Shown here piece by piece: positions 5,111 through 58,493 of a stretch of DNA of 64,000 nucleotides (positions within the stretch are counted from its first letter, which is position 1; the number at the start of each line of letters is the position of its first letter). The DNA is taken from assembly GCA_009839925.1 (NCBI GenBank), contig VXOS01000053.1, forward strand, positions 2,447 to 66,446. The letters run 5' to 3'. The translations under genes were made by a program, and so were the position numbers. The notes beneath the pieces are model-generated. The model was given only the letters and a program-made list of their open reading frames with translations. It searched no databases and was not told the DNA's origin. This DNA is from Chloroflexota bacterium (GTDB lineage: Bacteria; Chloroflexota; Dehalococcoidia; UBA2979).

Positions 5111-5302
5111 CCGGCGCGGGAGGACGGGTCCGATACTGGTGATGCACCCCTCCTCCGGTTAGACGCTGTGGCGCGAAGACGACGCTTTCAACCCTTCGGC
5201 CAACGATACACGCGTGGGCTCCGGACTGGATGTTCGTCACGCCGGCAGCTGTCGCCAGCCGCCACGCGGCAGCGACACCCTGGTGCGAGGGCGACCGATT
5301 CG

Positions 5303-6613: not shown

Positions 6614-6735
6614 ATCAACCGTCCAGGTAAGCGATCTACCCGACGGGGAAACAGGATTTTAGCACGAGGCCCGGTGGCCGGCCGCCGCGCGGCGGCGTGG
6701 AGGAGATCGCGGGCGTGCCACTCGGCCTTGCGCCG

Positions 6736-8527: not shown

Positions 8528-10285
8528 GTGCACGAACACGCACTCGTTGGCGAACTCGCCATCATCGGCGTGCTGGCCGTGGCGACAGCGCTCGGGCTGC
8601 ACCGGCTCGGGCTACCCGCAACCATCGGCTTCCTGATCACCGGCAGCATCGCCGGCCCGCACGGCCTGCACCTCGTCAGCGACACCGATCGGATCATGCA
8701 GATCGCCGAACTCGGCGTGATTCTGCTGCTCTTCGCGATCGGCCTCGAGTTCTCGCTCTCCCGGCTGCGCTTCATCTGGCGCACCGTGGCGATTGGGGGC
8801 TCGCTGCAGGTCGGCGCTACGGCGGCGGCGGCGCTCGCGATCCTCGTGATTGCCGGCGACAGTGTCGAACGCGGTCTCGTCTTCGGGTTCATCGTGGCGC
8901 TTTCGAGCACGGTGGTCGTGTTGCGCGTGCTGGCGGTGAGGGGCGAGCTGGCCGCCCCGCACGGGCGCTTCACCGTCGGCGCGCTGATCTTCCAGGATCT
9001 GCTGATCATTCCCCTCACCCTTCTCGTCCCGGTCCTCGCCGGCGGCGACGGCAGCCGCTTCCTGCTCGATGCGGGTTGGGCGCTGCTCCGCGCCACGCTC
9101 GCGATGGCGATCTTGTTGGGTGTCGCCCGCCTCCTGATCCCGCGGCTGTTCGCGGCGGTGGACGCCACGCGCACACGTGAGGTGTTCCTGTTGACCGTGA
9201 TCTCGGTCGCCCTCGGCTCAGCCTGGCTGATGAACCAGCTCGGGCTCTCCGTCGCGCTGGGCGCGTTCCTCGCCGGCCTGCTGCTTGCCGATACGGACTA
9301 CCGGCATCGCGCCACCAGCGACATCATCCCGCTGCGCGATGTCTTCACGAGCTTCTTCTTCATCTCGCTCGGCATGCTTGTCGACTGGCGGGTGTTCGTG
9401 GAGCAGCCGCTCCTCGCGCTCCTGATCGTGCTTGGCCTGGTTCCCGGAAAGGCGCTGATCGCCTCGCTCGCCGCGGTCGCGATGCGCTACCCCGCACAGG
9501 CGGCGTGGCGCGCCGGCTTCTACCTCGCCCAGTTCGGCGAGTTCGGCTACGTGGTCCTGATCCTCGGGGCGAACGAGGGCCTGATCACCTCCGACGAGGT
9601 GCGCCTGATCGTCACCACCGGCGTGCTCAGCATCATGCTGTCGCGGCTGCTCATGCGCTGGACCGGCGAGATGCATGCGGGCGAGGTGCTGCTCCGGCCA
9701 CTCGAGCGGCTGCTGCGCGTGCGCGGAATCGACGAGCCGACACCGGATGACGCCGCCCTCTCCGGGCACGTCATCATCGCCGGATTCGGCATCGCCGGCC
9801 AACTGCTGTCCCGCACGCTGGCGCAGGTAGGCATCCCCTACCTCGTCCTTGAGCTCAACGCGGAGACCGTACGAGACGCCCGTCTGGGCCACGAGCACGT
9901 CTACTACGGCGACGTCACCAGCCAGGAGGCCCTGGTGCACGCGCGGATCACCCACGCACGCGCCCTGGTGCTCCTCATCAACGACCCACCCGCCGTGCGG
10001 AGCGCAATCATCGCCGCCCGCGAGGAGAGCCCGGTCATCCCGATCCTCGCGCGCACCCGCTACGTCGCCGAGCGCGGGCAGCTCCTCGCTCTCGGCGCCA
10101 ACCAGGTGATCTGCGAGGAGCTCGAGAGCGGCGTCGAGATGTCCGCCAACGTGCTGCAGGTGCTCGGGCTCGATCCCCCGGCGATCCGCCACCAGATCAG
10201 CGATGCGCTGAGCGCCGCCGACGGCGTCGACCTCAGCGGCGGCAGCGGCGACTGGATCGAGGCGCTGGGCGACCGACCGCGCTAG
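8528..10285 (+). CDS. Kef-type K+/H+ antiporter (CPA2 family) with C-terminal RCK/TrkA-N domain
   Basis: Twelve hydrophobic segments, then a Rossmann GHVIIAGFGIAGQLL and an RCK-like C-terminus. GTG start at 8528. Confidence 0.75.
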   Translation: MHEHALVGELAIIGVLAVATALGLHRLGLPATIGFLITGSIAGPHGLHLVSDTDRIMQIAELGVILLLFAIGLEFSLSRLRFIWRTVAIGGSLQVGATAAAALAILVIAGDSVERGLVFGFIVALSSTVVVLRVLAVRGELAAPHGRFTVGALIFQDLLIIPLTLLVPVLAGGDGSRFLLDAGWALLRATLAMAILLGVARLLIPRLFAAVDATRTREVFLLTVISVALGSAWLMNQLGLSVALGAFLAGLLLADTDYRHRATSDIIPLRDVFTSFFFISLGMLVDWRVFVEQPLLALLIVLGLVPGKALIASLAAVAMRYPAQAAWRAGFYLAQFGEFGYVVLILGANEGLITSDEVRLIVTTGVLSIMLSRLLMRWTGEMHAGEVLLRPLERLLRVRGIDEPTPDDAALSGHVIIAGFGIAGQLLSRTLAQVGIPYLVLELNAETVRDARLGHEHVYYGDVTSQEALVHARITHARALVLLINDPPAVRSAIIAAREESPVIPILARTRYVAERGQLLALGANQVICEELESGVEMSANVLQVLGLDPPAIRHQISDALSAADGVDLSGGSGDWIEALGDRPR

Positions 10286-10304
10286 GCGAGGTCCGGCCGA
10301 ACGC

Positions 10305-10772
10305 TCAGAACGGCTTGTAGATCGCGAGCCACGTCATCACTGGCACGGTCAGCACCATCAGCGTGCCGAACACGACCGGCACGCGGTCGTTGATCGCGTC
10401 CTCGAGTTCCTGGCTGGTCTCGCCTCGCTTCTTCGCCTGCAAGGCCAGCAGCCGCACCCGCCGCAGACCGACGCCGAGCAGCGGGAGGAAGATGAAGACG
10501 TCGACCGCGTAGATCAGCTCGAGCGCCAGCAGCCAGCCGGTAGTCACGAGGTTGATGTTCTCCGCGGCCGCCCAGGCGAAGCCGGTCAGCCCCGTGGCCA
10601 GCAGGCCGGACAGCAGCCAGCGCGTCTCGTTCTGCTGCGCCTCGGTCAGCAGCGTCGCGCGCAGGTTGATGTCGGAGGTGCCCCAGGCGCGCCAGACGGC
10701 GACCATCACCGAGCCGAGCCCGGCCATCATCCAGAACAGCGCCAGCACGTGTAGCAAGCGGAACAAGGTCAT
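10305..10772 (-). CDS. Hypothetical integral membrane protein (4 TM, DUF-type)
   Basis: 155-aa ORF with four hydrophobic helices; no recognisable catalytic motif. Confidence 0.45.
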   Translation of the reverse strand: MTLFRLLHVLALFWMMAGLGSVMVAVWRAWGTSDINLRATLLTEAQQNETRWLLSGLLATGLTGFAWAAAENINLVTTGWLLALELIYAVDVFIFLPLLGVGLRRVRLLALQAKKRGETSQELEDAINDRVPVVFGTLMVLTVPVMTWLAIYKPF

Positions 10773-10820: not shown

Positions 10821-12461
10821 TCACGAGGACGCAGCCTGCGAGGCCGCCTCCCGCGCGGCGCCCGCGCGGTACTCCAGCGCCGCACCGACGAAATCGCGGA
10901 ACAGCGGCTGCGGGCGCAGCGGCCGCGAGGTGAACTCCGGATGGAACTGCGTCCCCAGCATCCAGGGATGATCGCGCAGCTCCATGATCTCGACCAGCTC
11001 GCCGTTCGGCGAGCAGCCGGAGGCGATCAGGCCGTGCTGCTCCAGCACCGGCAGCAGCGCGTTGTTCACCTCGTAGCGGTGGCGATGCCGCTCGCGCACC
11101 TGCTCCCGCCCGTAGGCGGCGGCGGCGTGCGTACCCTCGACCAGCCGGCACTCGAAGCCGCCGAGGCGCATCGTCCCGCCGTAGTCCTCGATGCCGCGCT
11201 GCTCCGAAAGCAGCGAGATCACGGGGAACGGGGTCCGCGGATCGGCCTCCGTCGTGTTGGCCTCCGGCATTCCGGCCACGTTGCGGGCGAACTCGCAGAC
11301 CATCATCTGCAGCCCGAGGCAGACACCGAAGTAGGGGATGCGCTGCTCACGCGCGTACGTCGCGGCGGAGATCTTGCCCTCCAGCCCGCGGTCGCCAAAA
11401 CCCGGACAGACGAGGATGCCGTCGACCTTGCCGATCGCCTCCTCCGGCGGGCGGGTGTCGAGCTCCTCCGAATGCACCCAGTGGAAGCTCATGCGCGCGC
11501 GATGGAAGACCGCGGCGTGGATCAGCGCCTCGCGGATCGAGAGGTAGGCGTCGTGCAGCTCCACGTACTTGCCGACCACGGCGATGCGCACCTCGGAGTC
11601 GGGGTTGCGCAGCCGCTGGACGAACTCACGCCAGTCGTCCAGATCGGAGGAGGGCGTCTCGATGCCGATGCGCCTCAGCACCAGGTCGGCGAGCCCGCAC
11701 GCCTCGAGGACCAGCGGGATCTCGTAGATCGAGTCGGCCGTCTGCAGCGGGATGACCGCCTCGCGCTCGACGTTACAGAAGAGGCCGATCTTCTCGCGCA
11801 GCGCCTCGGGCGCCGGCTGGTCGGCGCGAGCGATGATCACGTCCGGCTGGATGCCGAACGAGCGCAACTCGCGCACGGAGTGCTGCGTCGGCTTGGTCTT
11901 CAGCTCGCGCGTCGAGCCGATGTAGGGCAGCAGCGTGACGTGAATCGAAGCCGTCGCGTCCACGCCGAGCGTGTGCCGCATCTGCCCGATCGCCTCGATG
12001 AACGGCTGGCTCTCGATGTCGCCGATGGTGCCGCCGACCTCGACGATCACGACTTGGGCGTCCAGCGCGCTTCCCGCCTCGCGGATGCGCCGCCGGATCT
12101 CGTTGGTGACGTGCGGGATCTGCTGGATGGTGCCGCCGAGGAAATCGCCGTGCCGTTCCTTGCGGATCACCTCCTCGTAGATCTGGCCCGAGGAGGTGGA
12201 GTTGGCCTGCGTGAAGTTCTCGTCGAGGAAGCGCTCGTAGTGTCCGAGGTCCAGATCGGTCTCGGCGCCGTCGTCGGTGACGAAGACCTCGCCGTGCTGA
12301 TAGGGCGACATCGTGCCGGGATCGACGTTGATGTAGGGGTCGAGTTTGAGGACGGAGACGCGGAGGCCGCGGGCGCGCAGGATGCGGCCGAGCGAGGCGG
12401 TGACGATCCCCTTGCCGACGGAGCTCACGACGCCGCCCGTGACGAAGATGTACTTCGGCAT
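10821..12461 (-). CDS. pyrG: CTP synthase
   Basis: MPKYIFVTGGVVSSVGKGI N-terminus and a glutamine amidotransferase C-terminus (GVCLGLQ). The ORF-track start at 12488 adds 9 non-conserved residues; the canonical start is preferred. Confidence 0.9.
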   Translation of the reverse strand: MPKYIFVTGGVVSSVGKGIVTASLGRILRARGLRVSVLKLDPYINVDPGTMSPYQHGEVFVTDDGAETDLDLGHYERFLDENFTQANSTSSGQIYEEVIRKERHGDFLGGTIQQIPHVTNEIRRRIREAGSALDAQVVIVEVGGTIGDIESQPFIEAIGQMRHTLGVDATASIHVTLLPYIGSTRELKTKPTQHSVRELRSFGIQPDVIIARADQPAPEALREKIGLFCNVEREAVIPLQTADSIYEIPLVLEACGLADLVLRRIGIETPSSDLDDWREFVQRLRNPDSEVRIAVVGKYVELHDAYLSIREALIHAAVFHRARMSFHWVHSEELDTRPPEEAIGKVDGILVCPGFGDRGLEGKISAATYAREQRIPYFGVCLGLQMMVCEFARNVAGMPEANTTEADPRTPFPVISLLSEQRGIEDYGGTMRLGGFECRLVEGTHAAAAYGREQVRERHRHRYEVNNALLPVLEQHGLIASGCSPNGELVEIMELRDHPWMLGTQFHPEFTSRPLRPQPLFRDFVGAALEYRAGAAREAASQAASS

Positions 12462-12557
12462 CAGCCCTCGGATGGTTGGGGAGGACACGGACCATATTCC
12501 GCGCGCGGCGCGAAGGTGTCAACGATCGCGAGGTGTGGGAGCGTCCCAATGCACTCC

Positions 12558-12948
12558 CTACGGATCGCCCGTGTAGTCCTCAATCTCGCCCAGGGCCGGT
12601 ACGCGCCCGATGCCCCAGAGGATCACGTCACGACTTCGCTCGAAATCAGCATGGAACTCGAACCAGACCATGCACTCCGGCACGTTCGGAAATCCGGGCT
12701 CTGTGAGGAGCAACCCCTCACGGATCGGTCCGTCACCTGCAACAACCCTGATCCGTGGGTGCTCCAGGCCCTCCCGGTACGCCTCGATCTCGCGATCGAG
12801 GACGTGCTTGATGCCGCGGTCGAGCAGATGTCCCCGCGCCACGGCTGCCGGGGCCACCGAGCCAAGTTGCTCCGAAAACTCGGGCGTTACCTCGAAGTGG
12901 TGTGTCCAGCGGCCAGGCGGCTGCTCACGAGGAAGATCTCTTGGCACG
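12558..12948 (-). CDS. Uncharacterised ~130-aa protein translationally coupled to the Panacea-domain gene; candidate toxin (PanT-like) partner
   Basis: In-frame GTG (VPRDLPREQPPGRWTHHFEV...) overlaps the stop of the upstream Panacea gene by about 20 nt. Codons are visibly less GC-rich than neighbours (e.g. aga gat ctt cct, gag ttt tcg gag caa ctt). No recognisable family by eye. Confidence 0.35.
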
Positions 12949-13551
12949 TCGTTCCGCCAGCGCCCGCTGCCAGGCCGCGACCTCGGTCGGCGTGGGCTGG
13001 CGGTCCGAGATGTACACGGTTTCGTAGGGGATCTCCTCGCGGTCGCGCGCGAGCCTCCACCCCGCCTCGAGGTGCGACAGCGCGCTGACTTGCGACGCAT
13101 TGAGCTCCCGGAGGTCGGCGAGCACCGCATCTACGATGGCAAGTTCGGCGGGATCGAGGACCTCGCTTGCTTCCGACCCTCGCAGTGGGCGGATCACCTT
13201 CTGCGGGCGATTGAAGTAGCGCCGCTCGAAGCGTTCGAGTTCCCCCCCCGCCTCCATTGAGCGCAGGGCTGGAAGCAGTTCCCGGGGGGCAGGTCCTCTG
13301 TCCAGGCGCTGGTACGTAGCCCCGGTGATCGACTCGCCGAGCATTCCGAACGCCTTGAAGTCGCTGAAGTACAGGATCTTGTTGAGCTTCGTGGCGCCGA
13401 AGCGCGGATCCTCCTCCGACTCCTCGGCCACATAGAGAACGAGTTCCCGAAACTTACTGCTGTCGAAGGTCCTGGCCAGTGCCTCCTCCGTTATCGTGAC
13501 TGTGTGCCACCAACACGACCAGCCTCTTGCACGGCTAACCCGTAAACACAC
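12925..13551 (-). CDS. Panacea-domain (DUF4065, SocA/GepA-like) protein; putative PanA-type antitoxin
   Basis: ELVLYVAEESEEDPRFGATKLNKILYFSDFKAFGMLGESITGATY matches the DUF4065/Panacea core (KLxKLLYF...). GTG start at complement of 13549-13551; no internal Met until residue ~70. Confidence 0.6.
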   Translation of the reverse strand: MCLRVSRARGWSCWWHTVTITEEALARTFDSSKFRELVLYVAEESEEDPRFGATKLNKILYFSDFKAFGMLGESITGATYQRLDRGPAPRELLPALRSMEAGGELERFERRYFNRPQKVIRPLRGSEASEVLDPAELAIVDAVLADLRELNASQVSALSHLEAGWRLARDREEIPYETVYISDRQPTPTEVAAWQRALAERRAKRSSS

Positions 13552-13561
13552 TCTAGCCGTG
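13530..13561. promoter_or_regulatory. 8-bp inverted repeat (cacggcta-N16-tagccgtg) abutting the Panacea gene start; candidate autoregulatory operator
   Basis: Read directly from the sequence. The arm nearest the gene lies 3 nt upstream of the GTG start; the other arm lies inside the first codons. Confidence 0.3.
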
Positions 13562-13691
13562 TCTCACCACAACTGCCAAGGGCGGATCTCACGCAACCAT
13601 CGGCATTTCTTGCCGATGCTGTACGCCCGCCGTAGGCTGAGCCGCGTGCGTTCGAGGGCCCCCGAGGCCCCGCGACTAGAGAGGCGCACAG

Positions 13692-16895: not shown

Positions 16896-16911
16896 GCCGC
16901 GCCGGCAGCGG

Positions 16912-17682
16912 TCACTCGAGAACCACGAGCCAGGCGATCAGCGGGTCCGGGCCGCCGTTCGGATCCGGGTCGAGCCCGACGGCGACCCGGTCGCCCGCTC
17001 GGAGCTCGTGCGGGCCCGCGACCACGAGGTAGCGGGCGCCCGGTGCATCCCTGGCGCTGACTCGATCTCCGAAGACCAGGTCGCCCTCGGGTATGGCATG
17101 GTCGCCCTCGAGATCCTCGAGCAGAATCGAGGCGCCCTCGACGGCAACGACCGTGCCGCTCACGACCGCCTCGCCGGCCCAGCGCATCACGCCATCGCCG
17201 CCGATGTGCACCCGGTGCGCCCCGCCGAGGGCGTCCCGCAGCACGACGCGGAAGCCGGGCGTCAAGACCGCGGCGCAAGCGACACCCGGCTGCGCAACGC
17301 CAAGGCAGGCGTCGGGCCAGACGACCGCCTCGGCGACATCCACAAGGAGGTCGGTCGCCGCTGCGCCCAGCCACTCGGCCATCAACTCGATCGCATTGCC
17401 TGTTACAAGCTCCAGCGGTTGCCCGTCGCTCGCCAGCTGATCGCCGCTCGGCGTGGCGGTCGCAATCGCGGTCGGACCCTCCGTCGCCGAGGGCGCTGTG
17501 GTCGGCGTCGGCGGAACGGTCGGCGCCGCGGTTGGCGTCGCCGCCGCCGTCTCGGTCGGCGCTGCCGGGCCGGAAGCCGTCGGGGAGTCGGCAACGGGGC
17601 TCCGAGGCGGCGGGCTCTCCGTGGAGGAGCACGCCGCGAGCAAGAGCACGGCCGCAAGCGCGAGCGACAGCCGGGCGATCAT
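16912..17682 (-). CDS. Secreted lipoprotein with Thr/Pro-rich linker, function unknown
   Basis: Start MIARLSLALAAVLLLAACSS (signal peptide plus LAAC lipobox), preceded by GGGGGAAG. The ORF-track extension to 17850 has no support. Confidence 0.55.
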   Translation of the reverse strand: MIARLSLALAAVLLLAACSSTESPPPRSPVADSPTASGPAAPTETAAATPTAAPTVPPTPTTAPSATEGPTAIATATPSGDQLASDGQPLELVTGNAIELMAEWLGAAATDLLVDVAEAVVWPDACLGVAQPGVACAAVLTPGFRVVLRDALGGAHRVHIGGDGVMRWAGEAVVSGTVVAVEGASILLEDLEGDHAIPEGDLVFGDRVSARDAPGARYLVVAGPHELRAGDRVAVGLDPDPNGGPDPLIAWLVVLE

Positions 17683-17840
17683 CGGTGCTTCCCCCAATCC
17701 CCAGCTTCGAGGATAGTGCGGCGCGGCCTGCGGTATCATGTCCGGGACACCGCGCATCGGCGACGGCGCCGCGCGCGGTGTGTTCGTGCGCCTCGCCGTG
17801 AGGGGCGCGGGCCAGCAGCACGCGGACGCGAGGACAAGCG

Positions 17841-27782: not shown

Positions 27783-29285
27783 GTGGAGATCAACGTCACA
27801 AGCGGTGACCTGGCGGACCAGCACGTCGACACGATCGTCGTCGCGTTGCCCGAGGAAACGCGCCGCCTCGGCGGCGCGGTGGGCGCGCTCGACCAGGCGC
27901 TCGACGGCGCGATCAGCGCGCTGCTGCGCTCCGGCGTGGCGCCGGGGCGCGCGAACGAGGCCACGCCGATCGCCACCGGCGGCCGCATCCCCGCCGCCCG
28001 CGTCGTGGTGCAGGGCCTGGGCAAGCGCGCGCAGCTGAGCCCCGACCGGCTGCGCAACCAGACCGCCGGCCTGGCGCGCGCCCTGCGCAGCCTGGACGCC
28101 GGCAGCGTCGCAATCTCCACGCAGAACAGCGCCCGCGCCACGAGCGACGCCGAGGAAGCCGGACGCATCCTCGCGGAGGCCTTCGAGCTCGGCCTCTACC
28201 GCTTCGATCAGCACCGCACCCGCGCGCAGGACAAGCCCCGCGGGTCGGTCACGGCCCTGACCATCGTGGAGACCTCGGCGCGCCGCGCTCGCGCGGCGGC
28301 GCAGGGCGCCGAGCGGGGCGCAATCCTCGCCGAGGCGCAGAACTTCACGCGCGACCTCGCCAACGCGCCCGCCAACCTGATGACGCCGAGCGACGTCGCC
28401 GAGCGCGCCCAGGCGCGAGCCGACGAGGTGGGCCTCGAATGCGAGGTGATCGAGCGTGCCGCGGCCGAGCGGATGGGCATGAACTCCTACCTCTCGGTGG
28501 CGCAGGGCTCGCAGCAGCCCCCAAAGTTCATCGTGCTGCGCTACCGCGGCGGTCGCGGCCGCCGCAGCGTCGGGCTCGTTGGCAAGGGCATCACGTTCGA
28601 CACGGGCGGCATCTCGCTCAAGCCGCCGGCGAACATGGAGCGGATGAAGGGCGACATGAGCGGCGCGGCCGCGGTGATCGGCGCCATCGGCGCCATCGCC
28701 CGCCTCGAGCCCGCCGTCAACGTGACCGCGCTCGCGCCCTGCACCGAGAACATGCCGAGCGGGACGGCGACCAAGCCCGGCGACGTCTTCTACGCGATGG
28801 ACGGACAGTCGATCGAGGTGATCAACACCGACGCCGAGGGCCGCCTCGTGCTCGCCGACGCGCTCGCCTACGCGAAGTCGCAGGGCTGCACGCCGCTCGT
28901 CGACGTGGCGACGCTGACCGGGGCGATGGCGATCGCGCTCGGCAACGTGCGGGTTGGCGTCTTCGCCAACAACGACCGGCTCTACGCCGACCTCGAGCGC
29001 GCCGCGGCGGCCTCGGGCGAGCGGCTCTGGCGCTTCCCGCTCGACGACGAGTACGACGAGCAGATCCGCTCGGACGTGGCCGACATCAAGAACACCGGCG
29101 GCCGCGGCGCCGGCTCAATCACCGCCGCGAAGTTCCTGCATCGCTTCGCCGGCGACACTCCCTGGGCGCACTTCGACATCGCCGGAGTGATGGACGCGGA
29201 CCGCGACCGCGGGGTGCTGGTCAAGGGCAACGCCGGCGCCGCGACGCGCACGCTCGTGCACTACGTCCTCAACCGCGCGCGCTAA
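27783..29285 (+). CDS. pepA: Leucyl aminopeptidase (M17 family)
   Basis: NTDAEGRLVLADAL and the preceding Lys/Asp metal-ligand motifs (VGKGITFDTGGISLKP). Confidence 0.85.
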   Translation: MEINVTSGDLADQHVDTIVVALPEETRRLGGAVGALDQALDGAISALLRSGVAPGRANEATPIATGGRIPAARVVVQGLGKRAQLSPDRLRNQTAGLARALRSLDAGSVAISTQNSARATSDAEEAGRILAEAFELGLYRFDQHRTRAQDKPRGSVTALTIVETSARRARAAAQGAERGAILAEAQNFTRDLANAPANLMTPSDVAERAQARADEVGLECEVIERAAAERMGMNSYLSVAQGSQQPPKFIVLRYRGGRGRRSVGLVGKGITFDTGGISLKPPANMERMKGDMSGAAAVIGAIGAIARLEPAVNVTALAPCTENMPSGTATKPGDVFYAMDGQSIEVINTDAEGRLVLADALAYAKSQGCTPLVDVATLTGAMAIALGNVRVGVFANNDRLYADLERAAAASGERLWRFPLDDEYDEQIRSDVADIKNTGGRGAGSITAAKFLHRFAGDTPWAHFDIAGVMDADRDRGVLVKGNAGAATRTLVHYVLNRAR

Positions 29286-29328
29286 GGCGCGGCACGGGCA
29301 CGCGGCCGGGCGGAGCTGCGAGGAGAGG

Positions 29329-30678
29329 CTAGGCGACCTCGCGGGCGCGCTCGACCAGCTCGCGCAACGTCGCGATGTCACGCTTCGTCTCGGGGTCGAC
29401 CTGGACGGAGCGCTCCATCTTGCTCCAGCCGTGGTGGACCGTGGAGTGGTCGCGGCCCCCGAGGGTCTGCCCGATCTCCGCGAGCGAGCGGTGCGCAAGT
29501 TCGCGCATCAGGTACATCGCGAGCTGGCGCGGGTAGGCGACGCGCTTCTCGCGGCTCTTGGACAGCAGCGCCTCGCGGTCGATCTCGAAGTAGCGGCAAA
29601 CCACGTCCAGGATCGCCTCCGGCGAGGGCGGTAGCCGCGGCTCCGTCGGGTCAAGCGAGGCGAGCGCGGACTGCACGAGCGCAGGCTCGATCGGCTCGCC
29701 GGTGAGGCGCGCGTAGGCGACGACGCGTGTCAGGGAGCCCTCGAGCTCGCGGATGTTGCTGGTGAAGCGCCGTGCGATCACGTGCAGCGCGTCGTCGTTC
29801 ACCCGCACGCGCTGCTCCTCCGCCTTTGAGCGCAGGATGGCGACGCGCGTCTCGAGGTCGGGCGCCTGGATGTCGGCGATCATCCCCCACTCGAAGCGCG
29901 ACTTCAGCCGCTCCTCGAGGTCGGGAATCAGGACCGGGCTCTTGTCCGAGGTGATGACGATCTGGCGTTCCGCCTCGTAGAGGCTGTTGAACGTGTGGAA
30001 CAGCTCCTCCTGCGTCGCCTCCTTGCCGCCGACGAACTGAATGTCGTCGATCAGCAGCGCATCGGCGGAGCGGTAGCGCGCACGGAACTCCTCCTGCGTG
30101 CGCTGCTGGATGGCGGTCACGAGGTCGTTCGTGAACTGCTCCGCGGAGATGTACGTGATCTGTCGGCCGGCGCGGACCAGGCGGTGCCCGATGCCCTGCA
30201 GGAGGTGCGTCTTGCCGAGGCCGACCGCGCCGTAGAGGAACAGCGGGTTGTGCAGCGTGCCGGGAGAGTCCGCGACGCCCTCGGCGGCGGCGAACGCGAG
30301 GTGGTTCCCGGGCCCGACGATGAACGTGTCGAAGACGTAGCGGGTGTGCAGCCGTGGACGCGGGTAGACGGGCCCGGCAGGCTCGGCCGCGCCACCGCGC
30401 TGCAGCAACGGGGAATCGTCCGCCGGGGCGCGCAACGGCTCGAAGGCGACCTCCATGGGCCGATCGGCGATGTCGGTGAGCGTGCGAACCATCAGCGGCC
30501 GGAGGCGCTGTTGCAGCCACTCGGTGACGAATTCCGAGCGCGTGCCGATGATCAGCGTGGAGCCGTCGACGCGTACGCCCTCGGTGTCCGCTAGCCAGGT
30601 TTGATAGTTCGCTTCGGAAACATGCTGCCGGAGGTAGCGCAGTGCGGACTGCCAAAGCTGCGCCGGGTCTTGTTGCAC
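29329..30678 (-). CDS. dnaA: Chromosomal replication initiator protein DnaA
   Basis: Domain I (LWQSALRYL...), AAA+ Walker [16 protein letters not shown], and the domain IV HTH ([34 protein letters not shown]). Preferred start is GTG (complement of 30676-30678) with GGAGG 9 nt upstream; the alternative ATG is at 30741. Confidence 0.9.
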
Positions 30679-30741
30679 CCTCGTGGCCCTCCGGCGCTCC
30701 AGCGACAGCCCGGCGCAGCCCTGCGCGCCAGGTGATCGCAC

Positions 30742-31081
30742 CCCGTGCGGATGTCAACGAGCAATGCACACGTGTTGGCAAACACGCGGACGCGACCTGA
30801 TGCCCCGCCGTGTCTATCCAGGGCCAGCCACACCCTCGCCCCCGCGATTCCAGCTCCGGGGGTGACCCTTACGTGATTTCAATGCCCTTGGCAGACGGGA
30901 GGCTAGCGAACCGACAGGCTCCGCGACAAGCCTGTTATGTGAGTACCGCGCCGCTTTCCCCAGCACTCGCCGCTCTGCAGCCTGATGTTGGGATGAACTG
31001 TGTATAATCCGCGCTCTCGGAACACCCCTTGCCAGCCCGGCAGCACACGCCGATCGCGATCGCCCACCGCACCCGCCTCAC
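30742..31081. promoter_or_regulatory. dnaA upstream intergenic region; candidate oriC / dnaA promoter region
   Basis: A 340-bp non-coding region at the point where coding-strand bias flips (minus-strand genes to the left, plus-strand to the right). It contains the palindrome cgtgtt-ggca-aacacg (30765-30782), a near-consensus DnaA box TGTGtATAA (revcomp TTATaCACA) near 30997-31005, and locally AT-richer stretches. Confidence 0.3.
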
Positions 31082-31870
31082 TTGCCCCGGAGCCGAACCT
31101 TGCTTCTCGCCATCGACATCGGCAACACCAGCATCTCGATCGGCGCCTACGACGGAGCGCAACTCGTCCTCCGCGCTCGCCTGCCCACCGACGCCGCCCG
31201 GCCCGCCGCAGAGTACGAGCGCGGGCTCGTCGCCGCCCTTCGCGATAGTGGCGTCGAACCCGCGCGGATCACCGGCGCCGCGCTCTCCTCCACCGTCCCG
31301 GCCCTCGAGGACACGTTTAGGGCGGTCTGCCGCAGCAGCTTCGGCTGCGTCCCGCTCGTCGTGGGCGCAGACGTGCACACCGGTATCCCGATCCGCTGCG
31401 ACGAGCCGCACGAGGTCGGAGCGGACCGCATCCTGCACGCCGTCGCCGCGCTCGCCCGTCACGCCCCGCCCCTGATCGTGGTGGACCTCGGGACGGCGCT
31501 GGTTGTCGATGCAATCTCCGCGGACGGGGACTACCTCGGCGGCACGATTGCCCCCGGCATCGGGATCGCCTCGGAAGCACTCTTCGAGCGCGCGGCCAAG
31601 CTGCCCAACGTCGCGATCGAGCGCCCGGGCATGGCCGGCGTGATCGGCCGCAACACCGAACACTCGATGCAGTCGGGTATCGTGTACGGCTACGCGGAGA
31701 TGGTGTGCGGCATGGTGCGGCGCTTCCAGGCAGAGATCGGCCCGCAGGCCACGGTGATCGCCACCGGCGGCTACGCCCCGGTGATCGCCGACGCCGCCTG
31801 CTGCATCGACGCCGTGGAGGACGACCTCAACCTCGAGGGCCTGCGCCTGGTCTACGAGGCGAACCGGTGA
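31082..31870 (+). CDS. coaX: Type III pantothenate kinase
   Basis: LLLAIDIGNTSISIG N-terminal motif and a CoaX fold; TTG start. Confidence 0.85.
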   Translation: MPRSRTLLLAIDIGNTSISIGAYDGAQLVLRARLPTDAARPAAEYERGLVAALRDSGVEPARITGAALSSTVPALEDTFRAVCRSSFGCVPLVVGADVHTGIPIRCDEPHEVGADRILHAVAALARHAPPLIVVDLGTALVVDAISADGDYLGGTIAPGIGIASEALFERAAKLPNVAIERPGMAGVIGRNTEHSMQSGIVYGYAEMVCGMVRRFQAEIGPQATVIATGGYAPVIADAACCIDAVEDDLNLEGLRLVYEANR

Positions 31871-33081
31871 CCGCGCCCCTGAGCGGCCGCACGATCGTGC
31901 TCGGCGTCAGCGGATCGATCGCCGCCTACAAGTCCGTCGAGGTCACGAGCCGCCTCGTCCAGGCGGGCGCCGAGGTCGAGGTCGTGATGACCGAGGCGGC
32001 CACGAAGTTCATAGGACCATTGACGTTCCGGGGGATCACCGGACACGAGCCGTTCGTCGATCTCTGGGCGACGGCCGGGCCCCACGCCGAACCGCACGTC
32101 GCCCTCGGGCGAAGCGCCGACCTGTACCTGATCGCACCCGCCAGCGCCTCGACGATCGCGCGGATCGCGCACGGCATCGCCGACGACTTCGTCTCGCTGA
32201 CCGCGCTGGCGATGCGCGCGCCGGTGCTGATCGCGCCCGCGATGGACGCACAGATGTGGGCGAACCCCGCGACGCAGGACAACGTCGCGCTGCTGCGCGC
32301 GCGCGGAGTCGAGTTCCTCGGTCCCGTCGAGGGCCGGCTCGCGTCCGGCGAGGTGGGCGCCGGACGCCTCATGGAGCCCGCTGCGATGGTGGACCACGCC
32401 CGGGCGCGCATCGGACGCGAGTACGGCGACCTCGCGGGCACGCGCATCGCCGTCACCGCAGGCGGCACTCGCGAGCCCGCCGACCCCGTGCGCTTCATCG
32501 GCAATCGCTCAACCGGCAAGATGGGCCACGCCCTTGCCGAGGCGGCGTGCGACCGTGGCGCCGAGGTCGTGCTGATCACCAGCGCCGAGCTCGCAGCCCC
32601 CGCAGCGGCCGAGGTCGTCCACGTCGAAACCGCCGAGCAGATGCTCGGAGCGCTTCAGCAGCACGTGCCCGGCTGCGAGGCGCTGATCATGGCGGCCGCC
32701 GTCGCCGACTATCGCCCCGCCGAGTCGCTGCCTCACAAGCAGAAGCGCGGGGGCCTCGAGCACTGGAGCCTGGACCTGGAACGCAACCCTGACCTCATCG
32801 CCTCGATCCAGCGCGAGGGCCTGATCAAGGTCGCCTTCGCCGCGGAGACGGACGACGTTCTCCGGAACGCCGCCCACAAGCTGGTTGCGAAGGACGCGCA
32901 TCTCATGATCGCGAACGATGTCAGCGCGAAGGACGCCGGCTTCGCCGTCGACACGAACCGCGTCGTCATCCTCGACCGCGACGGGGGCTGCGACGAGCTG
33001 CCATTGCTCTCGAAGTACGACTGCTCACATCGGATCCTCGACCGCCTCGCCCCCCTGCTGGCCCACTCCGCAGATGCGTGA
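31867..33081 (+). CDS. coaBC: Bifunctional phosphopantothenoylcysteine decarboxylase / phosphopantothenate-cysteine ligase
   Basis: Flavoprotein N-domain (IVLGVSGSIAAYKSVEV) and CoaB C-domain (TAGGTREPADPVRFIGNRSTGKMG). GTG start overlaps the coaX stop (GTGA). Confidence 0.85.
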   Translation: MTAPLSGRTIVLGVSGSIAAYKSVEVTSRLVQAGAEVEVVMTEAATKFIGPLTFRGITGHEPFVDLWATAGPHAEPHVALGRSADLYLIAPASASTIARIAHGIADDFVSLTALAMRAPVLIAPAMDAQMWANPATQDNVALLRARGVEFLGPVEGRLASGEVGAGRLMEPAAMVDHARARIGREYGDLAGTRIAVTAGGTREPADPVRFIGNRSTGKMGHALAEAACDRGAEVVLITSAELAAPAAAEVVHVETAEQMLGALQQHVPGCEALIMAAAVADYRPAESLPHKQKRGGLEHWSLDLERNPDLIASIQREGLIKVAFAAETDDVLRNAAHKLVAKDAHLMIANDVSAKDAGFAVDTNRVVILDRDGGCDELPLLSKYDCSHRILDRLAPLLAHSADA

Positions 33082-33088
33082 CCCGCGC

Positions 33089-33109
33089 CCGCCCGGCGCC
33101 TGCGGGCGG
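33089..33109 (+). terminator. 7-bp stem hairpin (ccgcccg-gcgcctg-cgggcgg) 8 nt after the coaBC stop; candidate terminator
   Basis: Read directly; no U-tract follows. Confidence 0.3.
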
Positions 33110-33419
33110 CTTGTGGACAACTCCCGCTCGGCTGTTTGCAGGCGTCCCGTAACGCGCCAGCTCCGGCCACGCTCCCGGCCCGCTCCGAATCGGCCGCCTT
33201 CTCCTCCGCTCCGGCTACCCACGATGTGATCACGAGTGTTGGCTCTTATGCCGCACCTCGCCCACGCTCTCCTGACCGATTCTTGCAACGACCGCGGCCG
33301 TGCGGTCTGCTTCTCCACGCCGCCCACAGCGCTACTACTACGGCGTTCCCGCATCCACATCACCGGCTCCCCCCGTGCTCCCGTGGACAAGCACCCTCGT
33401 TTCGTGTGGAGTAGATCCC

Positions 33420-34718
33420 GTGATCGATCAGGTTGAAATCGAAGTAGTTGCCGGAAAGGGCGGCGACGGGATCGTCTCGTTCCGGCGAGAGAAGTTCGTG
33501 CCGCACGGTGGCCCCGATGGTGGCGACGGCGGTCGTGGCGGCGCCGTGGGGCTCGTCGCCGACCGCTCGATCACGGGACTCGGCGCCTATCGCGCCAGCA
33601 GGGTCAGGGCCGCGCAGCATGGGCAGCCGGGAAGCTCGGTACAGCGCCGAGGCGCGTCCGGGGAGGATCTGTGGCTGCCGGTGCCGCTGGGTTGTGTCGT
33701 GTGGGACCTGGACTCCGGCGAGGCAGTGGTTGGGGAACCCGGCGCAGAGGAGCGGCGGCCGTTTGCCGATCTCGCGGAGAACGGCGCGCGGGCGATTGTT
33801 GCGAGGGGCGGCCGCGGCGGCTGGGGCAACAAGCGATTCGCCACGGCGACCCGACGCACGCCGAGGTTCGCGCAGCGCGGGATGGCCGGCGAACGGCGGA
33901 GGCTGCGGCTCGAGTTGAAGCTGCTTGCCGACATCGGTCTCGTGGGGTTGCCCAACGCAGGCAAATCGACGCTGCTGGGCGCTTGGTCGGCGGCGCATCC
34001 GAAGGTGGCGCCCTATCCCTTCACAACGCTGGAGCCCGAGCTGGGCGTCGTCGAGCTTGGCTACGACTCGTTCGTCGCGGCGGACATGCCGGGGCTCATC
34101 GAGGGCGCGAGCCAGGGGGTGGGGCTGGGGCACGAGTTCCTGCGCCACATCGAGCGTACGAGGGTGCTGGTGCATGTCCTCGATATGGCGCGGGACGACC
34201 CGTTCGCCGACCGTGAGCTGATCGACCGCGAGCTGGCGGAGTTCGGGCACGGCCTCGCCGACAAGCCGCAACTGCTGGCCCTCAACAAGATCGACGACCC
34301 GGACGCCCGGGCGCACGTCGAGCTCTTGGAGGAGCTGCTGGACGCGCAGGAGACGCCGTGGCTGGCTGTCTCGGCGGCCTCGCTGGAGGGCACGAGGCAG
34401 CTCGCGGAACGGGCCTTCCAGTTGCTCCGGGAGCAGCTGCTGCGCGAGGAGGCCGAGGTTGCGCCGCCGCCGCGAGTCGAGCCGCGCGAGGTCCGGCGCG
34501 AGCGCTTCCAGATCGAGCGTGACGAGTTGGGGGGCGTCGTGGTGCGCGGCCGCACTCCCGAGTGGCTCGCGGCGACGTTCGACCTCGAGGATGACGAGGC
34601 GCGCGAGGAGCTGCTCGACCGCCTGCGGCGGCTCGGACTGGCGCGCGCGCTCTCTCGCGAGGGCGTGACGCCCGGCACGACCATCCACGTCGGCGCTGTA
34701 GCGCTGGTCTGGGAGTAG
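33420..34718 (+). CDS. obg: GTPase Obg/CgtA
   Basis: Obg fold N-terminus (VDQVEIEVVAGKGGDGIVSFRREKFVPHGGPDGGDGGRGG), G1 motif GLVGLPNAGKST, and a C-terminal OCT/TGS domain. GTG start with GGAG 9 nt upstream. Confidence 0.9.
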   Translation: MIDQVEIEVVAGKGGDGIVSFRREKFVPHGGPDGGDGGRGGAVGLVADRSITGLGAYRASRVRAAQHGQPGSSVQRRGASGEDLWLPVPLGCVVWDLDSGEAVVGEPGAEERRPFADLAENGARAIVARGGRGGWGNKRFATATRRTPRFAQRGMAGERRRLRLELKLLADIGLVGLPNAGKSTLLGAWSAAHPKVAPYPFTTLEPELGVVELGYDSFVAADMPGLIEGASQGVGLGHEFLRHIERTRVLVHVLDMARDDPFADRELIDRELAEFGHGLADKPQLLALNKIDDPDARAHVELLEELLDAQETPWLAVSAASLEGTRQLAERAFQLLREQLLREEAEVAPPPRVEPREVRRERFQIERDELGGVVVRGRTPEWLAATFDLEDDEAREELLDRLRRLGLARALSREGVTPGTTIHVGAVALVWE

Positions 34719-36062: not shown

Positions 36063-36548
36063 TCAATCGCCGGTCACGGGCGGCCCTGGCTCGCCGAGGT
36101 CGAAGGAGAGCCGCACATGCGCGTCCTGCGCCGCGGCCCAGTCGCACATCGCCGCCAGCTCCCCGAGCCGCGGCGCGAGGTCCTCGTAGCCCTCGAGCAG
36201 CTCGTTGAGCTGGCGGTCGCCGGCCGTGGTCGCCGCCGCGACGGCGCGGCAGCAGTCGGCGAGGGCTGCCGGGTCCTGCCACATCCGCTGTAGCTCGCGG
36301 CGGTCCGCTTCGTCCTCGACGCGGCGGTCGGCGTAGCGCAGCAGCGGGCGCAGCGCGACCTTGTGCAGCGTCTCGATGCGGCTCGCGGCCTTCGCCAGCT
36401 CGTGCTGCGCCCCGAAGCGCAGCGAGAACGCCCACGAGGCGAAGTACAGCACCACCGAGGAGTCTCCCCCGAACGCGATCGGGCAGGCCTCGTCCGTGTC
36501 GAACTCGACGTGGAGGGGCGGCAGGGCGTGCTCGGCGGGGCTGGTCAT
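36063..36548 (-). CDS. Hypothetical protein cotranscribed between gyrB and the methyltransferase
   Basis: 161-aa ORF with GC3-rich codon usage; no recognisable motif. Confidence 0.4.
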   Translation of the reverse strand: MTSPAEHALPPLHVEFDTDEACPIAFGGDSSVVLYFASWAFSLRFGAQHELAKAASRIETLHKVALRPLLRYADRRVEDEADRRELQRMWQDPAALADCCRAVAAATTAGDRQLNELLEGYEDLAPRLGELAAMCDWAAAQDAHVRLSFDLGEPGPPVTGD

Positions 36549-36565: not shown

Positions 36566-38626
<2,061 letters not shown>

Positions 38627-44874: not shown

Positions 44875-44953
44875 CGGCCGGCCCGAGGTTTGACGCCCTG
44901 CGCATGCGCCCCCGATCCTGTGATCGGCGGGGGCTGCACGGAGGCGCGGCCCG

Positions 44954-45859
44954 TTGACTGCGACAGGTTCCAGGCTCTCGCGACGCAGGTTCCTCAGGCG
45001 CACCGTCCTCGGCGTCCTGCTCGGGGGCGCGCTGATCGTCGCCTGCTCTCGCTTCCGCCCGGACGACGAAGAGCCGCCCGAGGTCGTCGCCCACACGCCG
45101 ACGCCGACACCAACCCCCACCGAGCCGCCGACGCCGACCGCGACGCCTACGCCAACGCCGCGGCCGCTGCCGACGCGCAGATCCCGGCCGGCCACGCCGA
45201 CTCCGATCCCCGCTTCCGATCCCACACCTGTCACGCCGACGCCGTACCCCTCGACGCTTGATCCCGAGGACCTGCGCGGCTTCACCGTTCCGATCGAGGG
45301 AGGCTGCCTGCCGGATTCGGACCGGCTGATGCCGAACGCGCCGCGTGAGTACCGCAACGGCTTCCACGAGGGCGTCGACTGGTACAACGGACTCGCCTGC
45401 GCCGCCGTCTCCGAGGGCACCCCGGTGATGGCGATGTACCGCGGCATCGTGATCCGCGCCGACCTCGACTACGTCGAGATCACGATCGAGCAGATCAACG
45501 AGTTCGCGGAGCGCACCGCCGAGAAGGGCTACACCGAGGAGCCGATCCTCGACATCTACCGGGGGCGGCAGGTCTGGATCGACCACGGCAACGGCGTCGC
45601 CACCCGCTACTGCCACCTCAGCGTGATCGCCGAAGGCATCGAGGAAGGCGTCGAGGTCGAGCAGGGCCAGCTGATCGGCGGCGTCGGCGAATCCGGCACG
45701 CCGGAGGCGATCACGGCGCCGGGCACGGAGCTGCACCTCCACGCCGAGGTGCGCATCGGGGACTCGTTCCTCGGCGCCGGCCTGCCGCCCGAAGAAGTGC
45801 GTGCGCTCTACGTCAAGCTGTTCGGTCTTGGCGAGGACGAGTCCGCCTCGGGAGGCTGA
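44954..45859 (+). CDS. M23 family peptidase, Tat-signal lipoprotein with Pro/Thr-rich linker
   Basis: SRRRFLRRTVLG twin-arginine motif, LIVACS lipobox, a PTPTPTPT linker, and the M23 core (HEGVDW...HGNGVATRYCHL...ELHLHAEV). TTG start. Confidence 0.75.
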   Translation: MTATGSRLSRRRFLRRTVLGVLLGGALIVACSRFRPDDEEPPEVVAHTPTPTPTPTEPPTPTATPTPTPRPLPTRRSRPATPTPIPASDPTPVTPTPYPSTLDPEDLRGFTVPIEGGCLPDSDRLMPNAPREYRNGFHEGVDWYNGLACAAVSEGTPVMAMYRGIVIRADLDYVEITIEQINEFAERTAEKGYTEEPILDIYRGRQVWIDHGNGVATRYCHLSVIAEGIEEGVEVEQGQLIGGVGESGTPEAITAPGTELHLHAEVRIGDSFLGAGLPPEEVRALYVKLFGLGEDESASGG

Positions 45860-53739: not shown

Positions 53740-54692
53740 TGACGGCGACCGCGCGCACCAGCGAGGGTCGCCGCGCCCAGCCGGCGATCGCCGACTCCGT
53801 GCTCGACCTGATCGGCGTGACGCCGCTCGTGCGGTTGCACCGCGTCGTGCCCGAGGGCTGCGCCGAGATTCTTGGCAAGCTCGAGTCGCGCAACCCGGCC
53901 GGCTCCGTGAAGGATCGCATCGCGCTGAGCATGATCGAGGATGCCGAGCGCGACGGCCTGATCGCGCCGGGCGACACGATGGTCGAGCCGACCTCCGGCA
54001 ACACCGGCATCGGCCTCGCCATGGTCTGCGCGCGCAAGGGCTACCGGCTGATCCTGACGATGCCCGAGGACATGAGCGTCGAGCGGCGGCGCCTGCTCGA
54101 GCGTTTCGGCGCGGAGTTGCGGCTTACCCCGGCGATCGAGGGCATGACGGGAGCGGTCTACGCCGCCCGGCAGCTGTCCGAGGAGCACGGCTACTTCATG
54201 CCGCAGCAGTTCGATAACCTCGCCAACCCGCGCGTCCACCGCGAGACGACGGGCCCCGAGATCATCGAGGCCACCGGCGGCGCGCTCGACGCGTTCGTCG
54301 CGGGCGTCGGCACCGGCGGCTCGATCACCGGCGTCGGCGAGGTGCTGCGCGAGGCCGTCGCCGACGTGCGCATCGTCGCAGTCGAGCCGTTGCGCTCGCC
54401 GGTGCTCCAGGGCGGACGCGCCGGGCTGCACGGCATCCAGGGCATCGGCGCCTCGTTCGTGCCGGGCGTGCTCAACCGCGAGATCTATGACGAGGTGATC
54501 AGCGTGCGCGACGAGGATGCCTACGCGATGACGGAGCGGCTGACCCGCGAGGAAGGTCTGCTCGTCGGGATCTCGGCCGGCAGTAACGTCTGGGCCTCGA
54601 TCGAGGTCGGCAAGCGGCTCGGGCCGGACTGTCGCGTGGTGACGATGCTCTGTGACACCGGCGAGCGCTACCTGAGCGTGGCGCTCTCGTGA
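53739..54692 (+). CDS. cysK: Cysteine synthase A (O-acetylserine sulfhydrylase)
   Basis: PLP-lysine motif NPAGSVKDRIAL, then TSGNTGIGLA and the GVGTGGSITG loop. Start overlaps the Rrf2 stop. Confidence 0.85.
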   Translation: MTATARTSEGRRAQPAIADSVLDLIGVTPLVRLHRVVPEGCAEILGKLESRNPAGSVKDRIALSMIEDAERDGLIAPGDTMVEPTSGNTGIGLAMVCARKGYRLILTMPEDMSVERRRLLERFGAELRLTPAIEGMTGAVYAARQLSEEHGYFMPQQFDNLANPRVHRETTGPEIIEATGGALDAFVAGVGTGGSITGVGEVLREAVADVRIVAVEPLRSPVLQGGRAGLHGIQGIGASFVPGVLNREIYDEVISVRDEDAYAMTERLTREEGLLVGISAGSNVWASIEVGKRLGPDCRVVTMLCDTGERYLSVALS

Positions 54693-55906: not shown

Positions 55907-55954
55907 GGCACGCGGCGCGTTCATCGGCGACGGGGAGGGAGCCGGTCTTGGAGG

Positions 55955-56223
55955 TGCGGGTCAACGTGACCTCGGTCATCCAAAAGACCGTCGGCGGACA
56001 GCGCGAGCTGACCGCCGAGGGCGGCACCGTCGCGGAGCTGATCGACGACATCGATCGGCGCTACCCGGGATTCCGCGACCAGCTCGTCGACGAAGGCGGG
56101 CAGCTGCACCGCTTCGTCAACGTCTACCTCAACGACGAGGACGTGCGCTTCATGGAGGGCGCCGCGACGGCGCTGAGCGAGGGCGACGAGATCTCGATCC
56201 TGCCAGCGCTGGCCGGCGGCTAG
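55955..56223 (+). CDS. cysO: Sulfur carrier protein CysO (MoaD/ThiS family, C-terminal GG)
   Basis: VRVNVTSVIQKTVGGQ...QLHRFVNVYLNDEDVRFMEGAATALSEGDEISILPALAGG* closely follows mycobacterial CysO. GGAGG overlaps/precedes the GTG start. Confidence 0.8.
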
Positions 56224-56238
56224 CGGCGGAGGATTGTC

Positions 56239-57207: not shown

Positions 57208-57257
57208 CCGGAGCGTCGACGACCGGCGGCGCTATCGCCGGGAAAGGGGAACACAGG

Positions 57258-58082: not shown

Positions 58083-58107
58083 CCCGGAGCCGGGGACGGC
58101 GCGCGCG

Positions 58108-58491: not shown

Positions 58492-58493
58492 CG

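Follow-up and report, generated by a model that had tools for sequence, protein, structure and literature searches.

The basal unwinding system (BUS), whose DnaA-boxes are followed by a run of DnaA-trios, has been proposed as an ancestral and widespread architecture of bacterial replication origins (Pelliciari et al., 2021; PMC8287927). This study concerns the probable chromosomal origin, oriC, of an uncultured Dehalococcoidia lineage of the Chloroflexota, analysed in a stretch of 64,000 nucleotides (assembly GCA_009839925.1, contig VXOS01000053.1, positions 2,447 to 66,446) that is referred to here as the window. The experimentally validated BUS scaffold of Bacillus subtilis reads 5'-TTATCCACAAATCCACAGGCC-CTACTATTACTTCTACTA, and for Dehalococcoides mccartyi 195 a BUS has been predicted at genome coordinates 1629-1661 (DoriC entry ORI10010023) (Pelliciari et al., 2021; PMC8287927). 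In Escherichia coli, oriC has been separated from dnaA by rearrangement (Pelliciari et al., PMC8287927). No publication on the oriC of any Dehalococcoidia came up in a literature search.

The high-GC origins of Streptomyces and Mycobacterium lie in the gap between dnaA and dnaN and carry boxes of the TTGTCCACA type, roughly 19 of them in Streptomyces. At the oriC of B. subtilis, the BUS is said to lie in incC, at DnaA-boxes #6 and #7, and was reportedly described by Richardson in 2016 and 2019. Bipartite origins are represented by incAB/incC of B. subtilis and by oriC1/oriC2 of Helicobacter pylori and of Clostridioides difficile.

A first-pass annotation of the window had placed a probable origin in the 340-bp gap, free of open reading frames (ORFs), that is bounded by dnaA and coaX (gap A). 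The coordinates and gene identities given for this gap agree with ORF and Pfam annotation. Furthermore, the chromosomal replication origin very probably does lie in the dnaA-coaX-coaBC-obg neighbourhood, because the local skew switches there from minus to plus, in the window and in 30 of 40 related genomes, and a rightward fork would travel in the same direction as the genes on that side. The choice of gap, however, appears to be wrong. The origin signature lies 2.3 kb to the right, between coaBC and obg (gap B), and the likely reading of the evidence presented below is that the unwinding core of oriC is located in gap B and not in gap A. The visible part of the replicon is the 64 kb of the window, which is about 70% GC, and the relatives were seen as flanks of 8 kb on each side of dnaA.

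A candidate unwinding module upstream of obg

Both strands of the window were scanned with the published BUS rules, which call for a box with at most two mismatches to TTATCCACA or the species variant, a spacer of 0-16 bp, and at least three trios of the form 3'-[G/A]A[T/A]-5' (PMC8287927). Also looked for were a second box in tandem and in the same orientation (at most four mismatches) and a GC-rich spacer ahead of the trios. The orientation of the B. subtilis module was taken from the scaffold sequences in the supplement of the same paper. The scan returned a single match, at position 33311 in gap B, where the upstream box, the tandem box and the at least three consecutive trios are all present in B. 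subtilis-like orientation (Table 1). A pattern search for the module likewise gave one match against 0.00 expected by shuffling, and the trio run CTACTACTA occurs once in the window.

The module is embedded in a cluster of DnaA-boxes. Judged by Markov simulations of the same gap, the six boxes of gap B with at most two mismatches (P<0.0005) and the two with at most one mismatch (P=0.0005) are strongly enriched, and gap B is the densest 338-bp window for DnaA-boxes in the 64 kb. Among nine close relatives, the sequence of gap B has diverged except for islands at the DnaA-box cores and at the CTACTAC run of the trios. The single perfect box, at 33112, is weakened in close relatives, reading TGTGGGTAA in five of them and CGTGGATAA, CGTGGGTAA and TGTGGGTAC in one each. 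In a nearest-neighbour stability scan, two windows just downstream, one of 40 bp at 33409 and one of 80 bp at 33378, each take second place for low stability among about 64,000.

Table 1. Coordinates of the candidate origin, the dnaA-coaX gap and flanking genes in the window
Feature	Position	Strand	Description
pepA	27783-29285	plus	convergent with dnaA, not co-transcribed
dnaA	29329-30741	minus	full-length; Pfam DnaA_N, Bac_DnaA, Bac_DnaA_C
Inverted block (dnaA, gap A, coaX, coaBC)	29329-33081		3.75 kb, flipped in place relative to most Dehalococcoidia relatives
Gap A	30742-31081		probable divergent dnaA/coaX regulatory region, not origin core
Degenerate inverted DnaA-box pair ATGTCAACG-N13-TGTTGGCAA	30751-30781		3 and 2 mismatches to TTGTCCACA
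Putative dnaA promoter	30900-30944	minus	-35 TTGTCG (30929-30924), -10 TAGCCT (30905-30900), upstream element ACTCACATAAC (30944-30934)
TGTGTATAAT	30999-31008	plus	contains putative -10 hexamer TATAAT (31003-31008) facing coaX
coaX	31082-31870	plus	type III pantothenate kinase; Pfam Pan_kinase
coaX + coaBC	31082-33081	plus	now between dnaA and the proposed origin core
coaBC	31705-33081 (longest ORF)	plus	Pfam Flavoprotein + DFP
Gap B (coaBC-obg gap)	33082-33419		proposed oriC core; dnaA-obg intergenic region in most relatives
Perfect high-GC-type DnaA-box TTGTCCACA	33112-33120	minus	only perfect copy in the window
BUS-like module	33311-33340	plus	tandem boxes, GCG spacer, three DnaA-trios
Upstream tandem box TTCTCCACG	33311-33319	plus	2 mismatches; 12 bp to first trio
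Second tandem box CCGCCCACA	33320-33328	plus	3 mismatches to TTGTCCACA, 4 to TTATCCACA
DnaA-trios CTACTACTA	33332-33340 (GCG spacer from 33329)	plus	other strand reads 3'-GATGATGAT-5', 3'-GAT-5' three times
Box GCATCCACA	33351-33359	plus	2 mismatches
Candidate unwinding region	33378-33457		ranks second for low stability among the 80-bp duplex windows of the 64 kb; straddles obg start
Box TTGTCCACG	33382-33390	minus	1 mismatch; invariant in all 9 close relatives
Box TACTCCACA	33405-33413	minus	2 mismatches; overlaps GGAG ribosome-binding site of obg; invariant in 9/9 close relatives
obg	33420-34718	plus	start GTG 33420, not the longest-ORF GTG 33300
gyrB	36566-38617	minus	followed by a protein without Pfam match, then a methyltransferase

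This arrangement shares with the incC BUS of B. subtilis the tandem boxes in the same orientation, the short GC-rich spacer and, on the other strand, the 3'-GAT-5' trios. In both, 12 bp separate the upstream box from the first trio, the window reading 5'-TTCTCCACGCCGCCCACAGCG-CTACTACTA, and in most Dehalococcoidia relatives the module likewise lies downstream of dnaA, toward the next gene. It differs from the B. subtilis module in having three trios rather than six or more, in boxes that keep only the TCCACA core, and in the lack of an AT-rich 27-mer after the trios. The next gene, moreover, is obg and not dnaN, and dnaA has been inverted away in this clade. With the actinobacterial origins the locus has in common the TTGTCCACA box variant, a GC content of about 70% and the lack of a strongly AT-rich unwinding element, whereas its boxes number about six as compared with roughly 19 in Streptomyces, its flanking genes are others, and it carries a clear, conserved run of CTA trios.

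Synteny and relocation of the module

Relatives were collected by a DnaA protein search with one genome per species, which returned 80 loci (cited below by L number), and the proteins of the window were mapped onto them by tblastn. The closest relatives are metagenome-assembled genomes of Dehalococcoidia, several of them available as complete chromosomes, among them OZ219871.1, OZ250164.1, OY839116.1, OZ252046.1 and OZ252250.1. In about 40 species, and even in the outgroups farthest removed (L047 and L050), the genes follow the order pnp(-), PAP2(-), pepA(+), coaBC(-), coaX(-), gap A, dnaA(+), gap B, obg(+), nadD(+), methyltransferase(-), hypothetical gene(-), gyrB(-). The absence of dnaN and gyrA beside dnaA and gyrB is therefore a family trait, and neither gene was found among the Pfam-annotated genes of the 64-kb window. 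The first-pass annotation was right that dnaA has no dnaN or recF next to it and pepA downstream, although pepA is convergent with dnaA, and that gyrB, on the same strand as dnaA, is followed by a protein without Pfam match and a methyltransferase rather than by gyrA. The neighbourhood that it called non-canonical, lacking dnaN and gyrA, is not a peculiarity of this genome, given that the arrangement is conserved across the family and is the norm in about 45 related genomes.

Relative to the shared order, the block containing dnaA, gap A, coaX and coaBC is flipped in the window and in its nine closest relatives (L001-L008, with L007 a partial contig, and L045), whose DnaA proteins are at least 89% identical. 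Gap B stayed with obg, and in the window clade it lies 2.3 kb from dnaA, as compared with directly downstream of dnaA in most relatives. These gene orders, with the direction of change polarised by the outgroups, point to a single event, an inversion of dnaA-coaX-coaBC, that separated dnaA from the origin in the window clade. Inverted repeats were sought at both block ends (29150-33450), and only low-identity chance pairs inside coding sequence turned up. The outcome resembles E. coli in that the origin is no longer beside dnaA. It differs in that the separation here is only 2.3 kb, recent and confined to one clade, and the BUS architecture is retained.

The association of the module with gap B extends well beyond this clade. 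A strict BUS scan of both strands of 48 loci (773 kb) gave 12 matches, all of them in gap B and none elsewhere. The relaxed lineage consensus, TCCACaCnncCCACAccn-CTACTACTAC, was found with its tandem pair in 37 of the 48 loci; it lies upstream of obg in 36, usually at 82-101 nt from the obg start (54-128 nt overall), and has moved in L043. The trio repeats in relatives range from (CTA)3 to (CTA)5.

Two relatives show other rearrangements of this region. In L043 (OZ252250.1), a box cluster with a tandem-box/CTAC module is found at 11450-12602, about 2.9 kb further from dnaA, between the convergent ends of nadD(+) and the methyltransferase gene(-) and beside a DUF772 (IS5-type) transposase fragment at 11722-12201(-). 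Only 192 bp, devoid of boxes, separate dnaA from obg in this genome, and the cumulative skew minimum of the locus, at 12570, has moved with the module. This joint relocation argues strongly against the module being a promoter element of obg. In L037 (CBDFJZ010000008.1), dnaA and the module are parted by an inserted gene of the MmgE/PrpD family (9411-10766); dnaA and obg lie 1.7 kb from each other, with the module still about 90 nt upstream of obg.

GC skew

The cumulative G-C of the window has its minimum at 33398, and the best two-segment change-point lies at 33400, so that the switch in skew from minus to plus falls, locally within the 64-kb window, at gap B. The composition does not switch at gap A. 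The coding-strand bias that the first-pass annotation saw flipping exactly at that gap is strong to the right, with 25 plus-strand genes among the 28 from coaX to folK and all three exceptions within 35.3-38.6 kb, but weak to the left, where 14 of 24 are on the minus strand. The sign of the skew flips for genes of both strands, with C-richness on the left giving way to G-richness on the right; the switch is therefore not a transcription-strand effect. The same pattern recurs among relatives. Across 41 loci (40 related loci and the window), the skew minimum of the whole locus of about 17 kb is found 32-112 bp downstream of the trios in 30, and skew is higher to the right than to the left of the module in 39 of 40 loci, with an averaged profile rising from -0.08 to +0.06.

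These data also bear on the proposal that the true origin is at some other chromosomal site, for example near dnaN, gap B serving merely as a promoter under DnaA control or as a leader for the obg-nadD operon. DnaA does act as a transcription factor as well, no more than 40 nt separate two invariant boxes from the start of obg, and 64 kb is all that is visible of the replicon. This proposal is nevertheless very improbable, considering that in 30 of 41 loci the cumulative skew again traces a V that bottoms out at the module and that in L043 the skew minimum follows the module to a site away from obg, between convergent gene ends. Additionally, a box-spacer-trio architecture has no known transcriptional role, and the BUS prediction for D. 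mccartyi 195 lies at the genome coordinates given above (PMC8287927, supplement).

The gap between dnaA and coaX

Gap A lacks every origin-core feature that could be tested. In the DnaA-box scan its counts are at chance level against the Markov simulations, with one box of at most one mismatch (P=0.07) and two of at most two mismatches (P=0.28), and it holds no box cluster above background, such as three or more boxes with at most one mismatch. A box-plus-trio module was found neither in gap A of the window nor in that of any of the 48 loci scanned. None of the 41 loci has its skew minimum within 1 kb of gap A, and the minimum of the window is 2.4 kb away.

The view of the first-pass annotation, that gap A is itself the origin, here with unwinding near TGTGTATAAT, has in its favour the position of the gap beside dnaA and between divergent genes, its single box with one mismatch, its conserved non-coding blocks, and a segment which the nearest-neighbour scan assigns to the least stable 20-bp stretch of duplex in the 64 kb. 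The lack of box enrichment, of a module and of a nearby skew minimum makes this view highly unlikely, and the low-stability segment itself coincides with a TATAAT/TATACT hexamer that is kept irrespective of its likeness to a DnaA-box. Alignment of close relatives together with inspection of all 53 loci resolved the conserved elements of gap A, and exactly one hexamer of the form [TC]ATA[AC]T directed toward coaX is present in gap A of 51 of the 53 loci, at 29-207 nt upstream of coaX. The TGTG prefix that lends it the appearance of a DnaA-box is found in only 17 of those 51. The near-consensus box TGTGTATAA reported by the first-pass annotation is present, at 30999-31007, and the hexamer of TGTGTATAAT is best read as a putative -10 element of coaX, an identity that would also explain the least stable 20-mer of the window.

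Upstream of the dnaA start lies a degenerate inverted pair of DnaA-boxes (Table 1). At the same position and with the same 13-nt spacer, at least nine relatives (L014, L016, L018, L020, L021, L025, L034, L049 and L054) carry a near-intact pair of the form TTRTCCACA-N13-TGTGGAYAA, with 0-1 mismatch per box, and the degenerate block is conserved across the nine close relatives of the window. The pair is probably a relic or a weak DnaA operator that was once autoregulatory. A palindrome that the first-pass annotation had pointed out, CGTGTTGGCAAACACG, is indeed present at 30771-30786, overlapping the right-hand box of the pair, but it is not above chance, with 57 equally good palindromes in the window (6-bp arms, 4-nt loop). 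An RNA hairpin formed by this palindrome was considered and rejected, because single substitutions in L045 and in L002/L003 preserve pairing on opposite strands and so do not agree with a structure in a transcript. A TTGACA motif (30757-30752, minus strand) was likewise rejected as the -35 element of dnaA, there being no -10 hexamer at 16-18 nt; the left half of the box pair accounts for it better.

The putative promoter of dnaA lies between the box pair and coaX. In 27 of 30 more distant anchored loci, ACTCCACATAA, TTGATC, a variable 18-nt spacer and TG-n-TACAGT/TACATT are kept at constant spacing, with deviations in L036, L023 and L048, and the window clade has a weaker yet invariant version, TTGTCG-N18-TAGCCT. 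An element of constant spacing directed toward dnaA is the signature of a promoter, and the assignment in the window would follow from this conservation by homology. A scan of 30500-33600 for the sigma-70 two-hexamer promoter consensus and for intrinsic terminators found nothing; the promoter calls therefore rest on conservation only. Within the window clade, the segment GCCCTTGGCAGACGGGAGGCTAGCGAAC at 30880-30925 is nearly invariant, and its GG-N10-GC arrangement loosely resembles a sigma-54 promoter; it is more likely to be the clade version of the dnaA promoter region than a sigma-54 promoter.

The order in relatives of a promoter-like element, an inverted box pair and then the dnaA start would fit an autoregulated dnaA promoter, and both elements are weakened in the window. 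Gap A is a probable divergent control region of dnaA and coaX, which may still assist the origin without specifying the site of unwinding. An Rfam search of the whole window at gathering thresholds gave no matches, and no tRNA or tmRNA genes were found; gap A therefore matches no known RNA family.

An assisting role for gap A would be essential under a bipartite origin, in which both gaps are needed and DnaA bound at gap A loops to gap B and aids unwinding, the two halves being now separated by coaX-coaBC and not by dnaA. Box-bearing gaps flank dnaA in most relatives exactly as in the known bipartite origins, with trios downstream, and across all loci gap A contains 2.7 boxes per kb as compared with 0.10 per kb in the remaining sequence, including the near-intact inverted pairs of at least nine relatives. 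Published bipartite origins unwind in the half downstream of dnaA, beside the trios (PMC7561715), and distal boxes can act by looping over hundreds of base pairs (PMC6669920). In the window, however, the upstream boxes have decayed (3 and 2 mismatches) and their number is statistically unremarkable, and its best "box" is the -10 hexamer. The box pair is absent in L009-L013 and many other relatives, and is therefore dispensable in several lineages, and its position, with the promoter-like element on one side and the start of dnaA on the other, is no less compatible with autoregulation. The bipartite reading is accordingly judged unlikely, though less so than the other alternatives considered here.

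Proposed mechanism and points against it

With the unwinding core placed in gap B, a scheme for initiation can be built on the observed motif content, conservation, synteny and skew, in which DnaA binding, unwinding and promoter activity are predictions. DnaA would bind the tandem boxes TTCTCCACG and CCGCCCACA, which share one orientation, with help from the flanking boxes at 33112, 33351, 33382 and 33405, and would then oligomerise over the GCG spacer onto the three trios (33332-33340). The duplex would open toward the least stable stretch at the obg start, and forks would depart in both directions, in agreement with the change of skew at 33398 and with the excess of plus-strand genes on the right. 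In evolutionary terms, the layout of most relatives, dnaA followed by oriC and obg, parallels the dnaA-oriC-dnaN order of many bacteria, and the 3.75-kb inversion would have moved dnaA 2.3 kb away and reversed it.

Several observations weigh against this reading. There is no truly AT-rich unwinding element, as the 100 bp at 33397-33496 are 55% GC, are partly Obg-coding and are AT-rich only in comparison with a 70% GC genome. The boxes of the module are weak (2 and 3-4 mismatches), with only the TCCACA core conserved, and its exactly three trios are the minimum reported as needed in B. subtilis. For the two invariant boxes beside the start of obg, a role as transcriptional DnaA sites, or conservation on account of the ribosome-binding site, would be an equally good explanation. 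Furthermore, a subclade (L022, L029, L040, L046, L052 and L065) has CTACGATGACGATGATC (TGATC) in place of clean CTA repeats.

The skew evidence has limits of its own. A deeper skew minimum may exist elsewhere on the replicon, of which 64 kb are visible. The flanking genes are orthologous across loci, and gene-intrinsic composition thus contributes to the repeated pattern; gap B, moreover, is itself C-rich, which sharpens the local minimum. The precision of about 100 bp in the skew is therefore partly a local effect, and below the 2-kb scale it is the motif evidence rather than skew that separates gap B from gap A. Finally, the coding strand of dnaA is C-rich (skew about -0.05 to -0.08) in the usual and in the inverted orientation, in the window (29329-30741) and in all loci, a skew that is either intrinsic to the gene or not re-equilibrated since the inversion. 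Skew inside dnaA was accordingly rejected as a discriminator between the two gaps.

Repeats similar to CTACGATGACGATGATC (TGATC) are also found in gap B of L019, L028, L030-L033 and L038. They misfit the (NAN)x3 trio rule in one frame and contain GATC sites. Such repeats may represent a variant trio array or an added regulatory motif.

Gene starts and neighbouring genes

The longest form of the dnaA ORF starts at GTG 30741, and an alternative GTG at 30676-30678 has a GGAGG motif 9 nt upstream. DnaA proteins of distant relatives align only from residue 22-25 of the long ORF, and its first 15 nt are unconserved among close relatives, with indels. The true start is probably the GTG at 30678 and not at 30741, which would make the dnaA-coaX intergenic region about 403 bp. 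For obg, the Pfam GTP1_OBG domain begins at residue 42 of the long ORF, and relatives align from residue 1 of the short form. The longest obg ORF, starting at 33300, would swallow the origin module.

To the right of coaBC, the genes run obg, nadD and then, on the minus strand, the methyltransferase, the protein without Pfam match and gyrB. The protein between gyrB and the methyltransferase (161 aa, 36063-36548) belongs to no Pfam family, and its synteny is conserved across the Dehalococcoidia family. Two adjacent paralogues with LysM and peptidase M23 domains are found at 3950-6658, and a third M23 protein is encoded at 44924-45859 beside murT/gatD and lgt; these cell-wall remodelling genes thus flank the origin on both sides. 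A cluster at 54656-58925 encodes a ThiF-ThiS fusion, ThiS, a PALP enzyme, a rhodanese, a protein without Pfam match and a JAB-domain protein, with folP and folK next in line, and resembles a sulfur-carrier-protein thiocarboxylate pathway of the CysO/CysM/Mec type. Two stretches of about 1 kb, at 12519-13679 and 16896-17801, have no convincing gene call or Pfam match.

Implications for Dehalococcoidia origins

The origin proposed here is of an ordinary bacterial kind, in an uncultured lineage of Dehalococcoidia. Its points of interest are modest: an obg rather than a dnaN context, very weak boxes at 70% GC, and the repeated uncoupling of the module from dnaA. A more far-reaching idea, which we hold only tentatively and consider doubtful as a whole, is that the oriC module of this family is a self-contained unit whose boundaries are a rearrangement hotspot. 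Under this idea, it would have been uncoupled from dnaA independently at least three times (the inversion in the window clade, the move in L043 and the insertion in L037). It would work at 70% GC with TCCACA-core boxes, three trios and no real AT-rich element. The window clade might then have a split origin with an auxiliary gap A across two coenzyme A biosynthesis genes.

For this high-GC lineage, in which dnaN does not lie beside dnaA, gap B provides a concrete candidate oriC, and origin calls made from dnaA adjacency alone would choose the wrong gap in the window clade. For these metagenome-assembled genomes, its coordinates can serve as a reference when replichores are oriented, when growth rates are estimated from metagenomic read depth and when a conventional start point is set. 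A module that is conserved in about 40 species-level genomes and travels with the skew minimum offers natural-experiment support for the BUS as the ancestral core of bacterial origins, and would extend that idea to the Chloroflexota and to GC-rich DNA in which the boxes are very weak.

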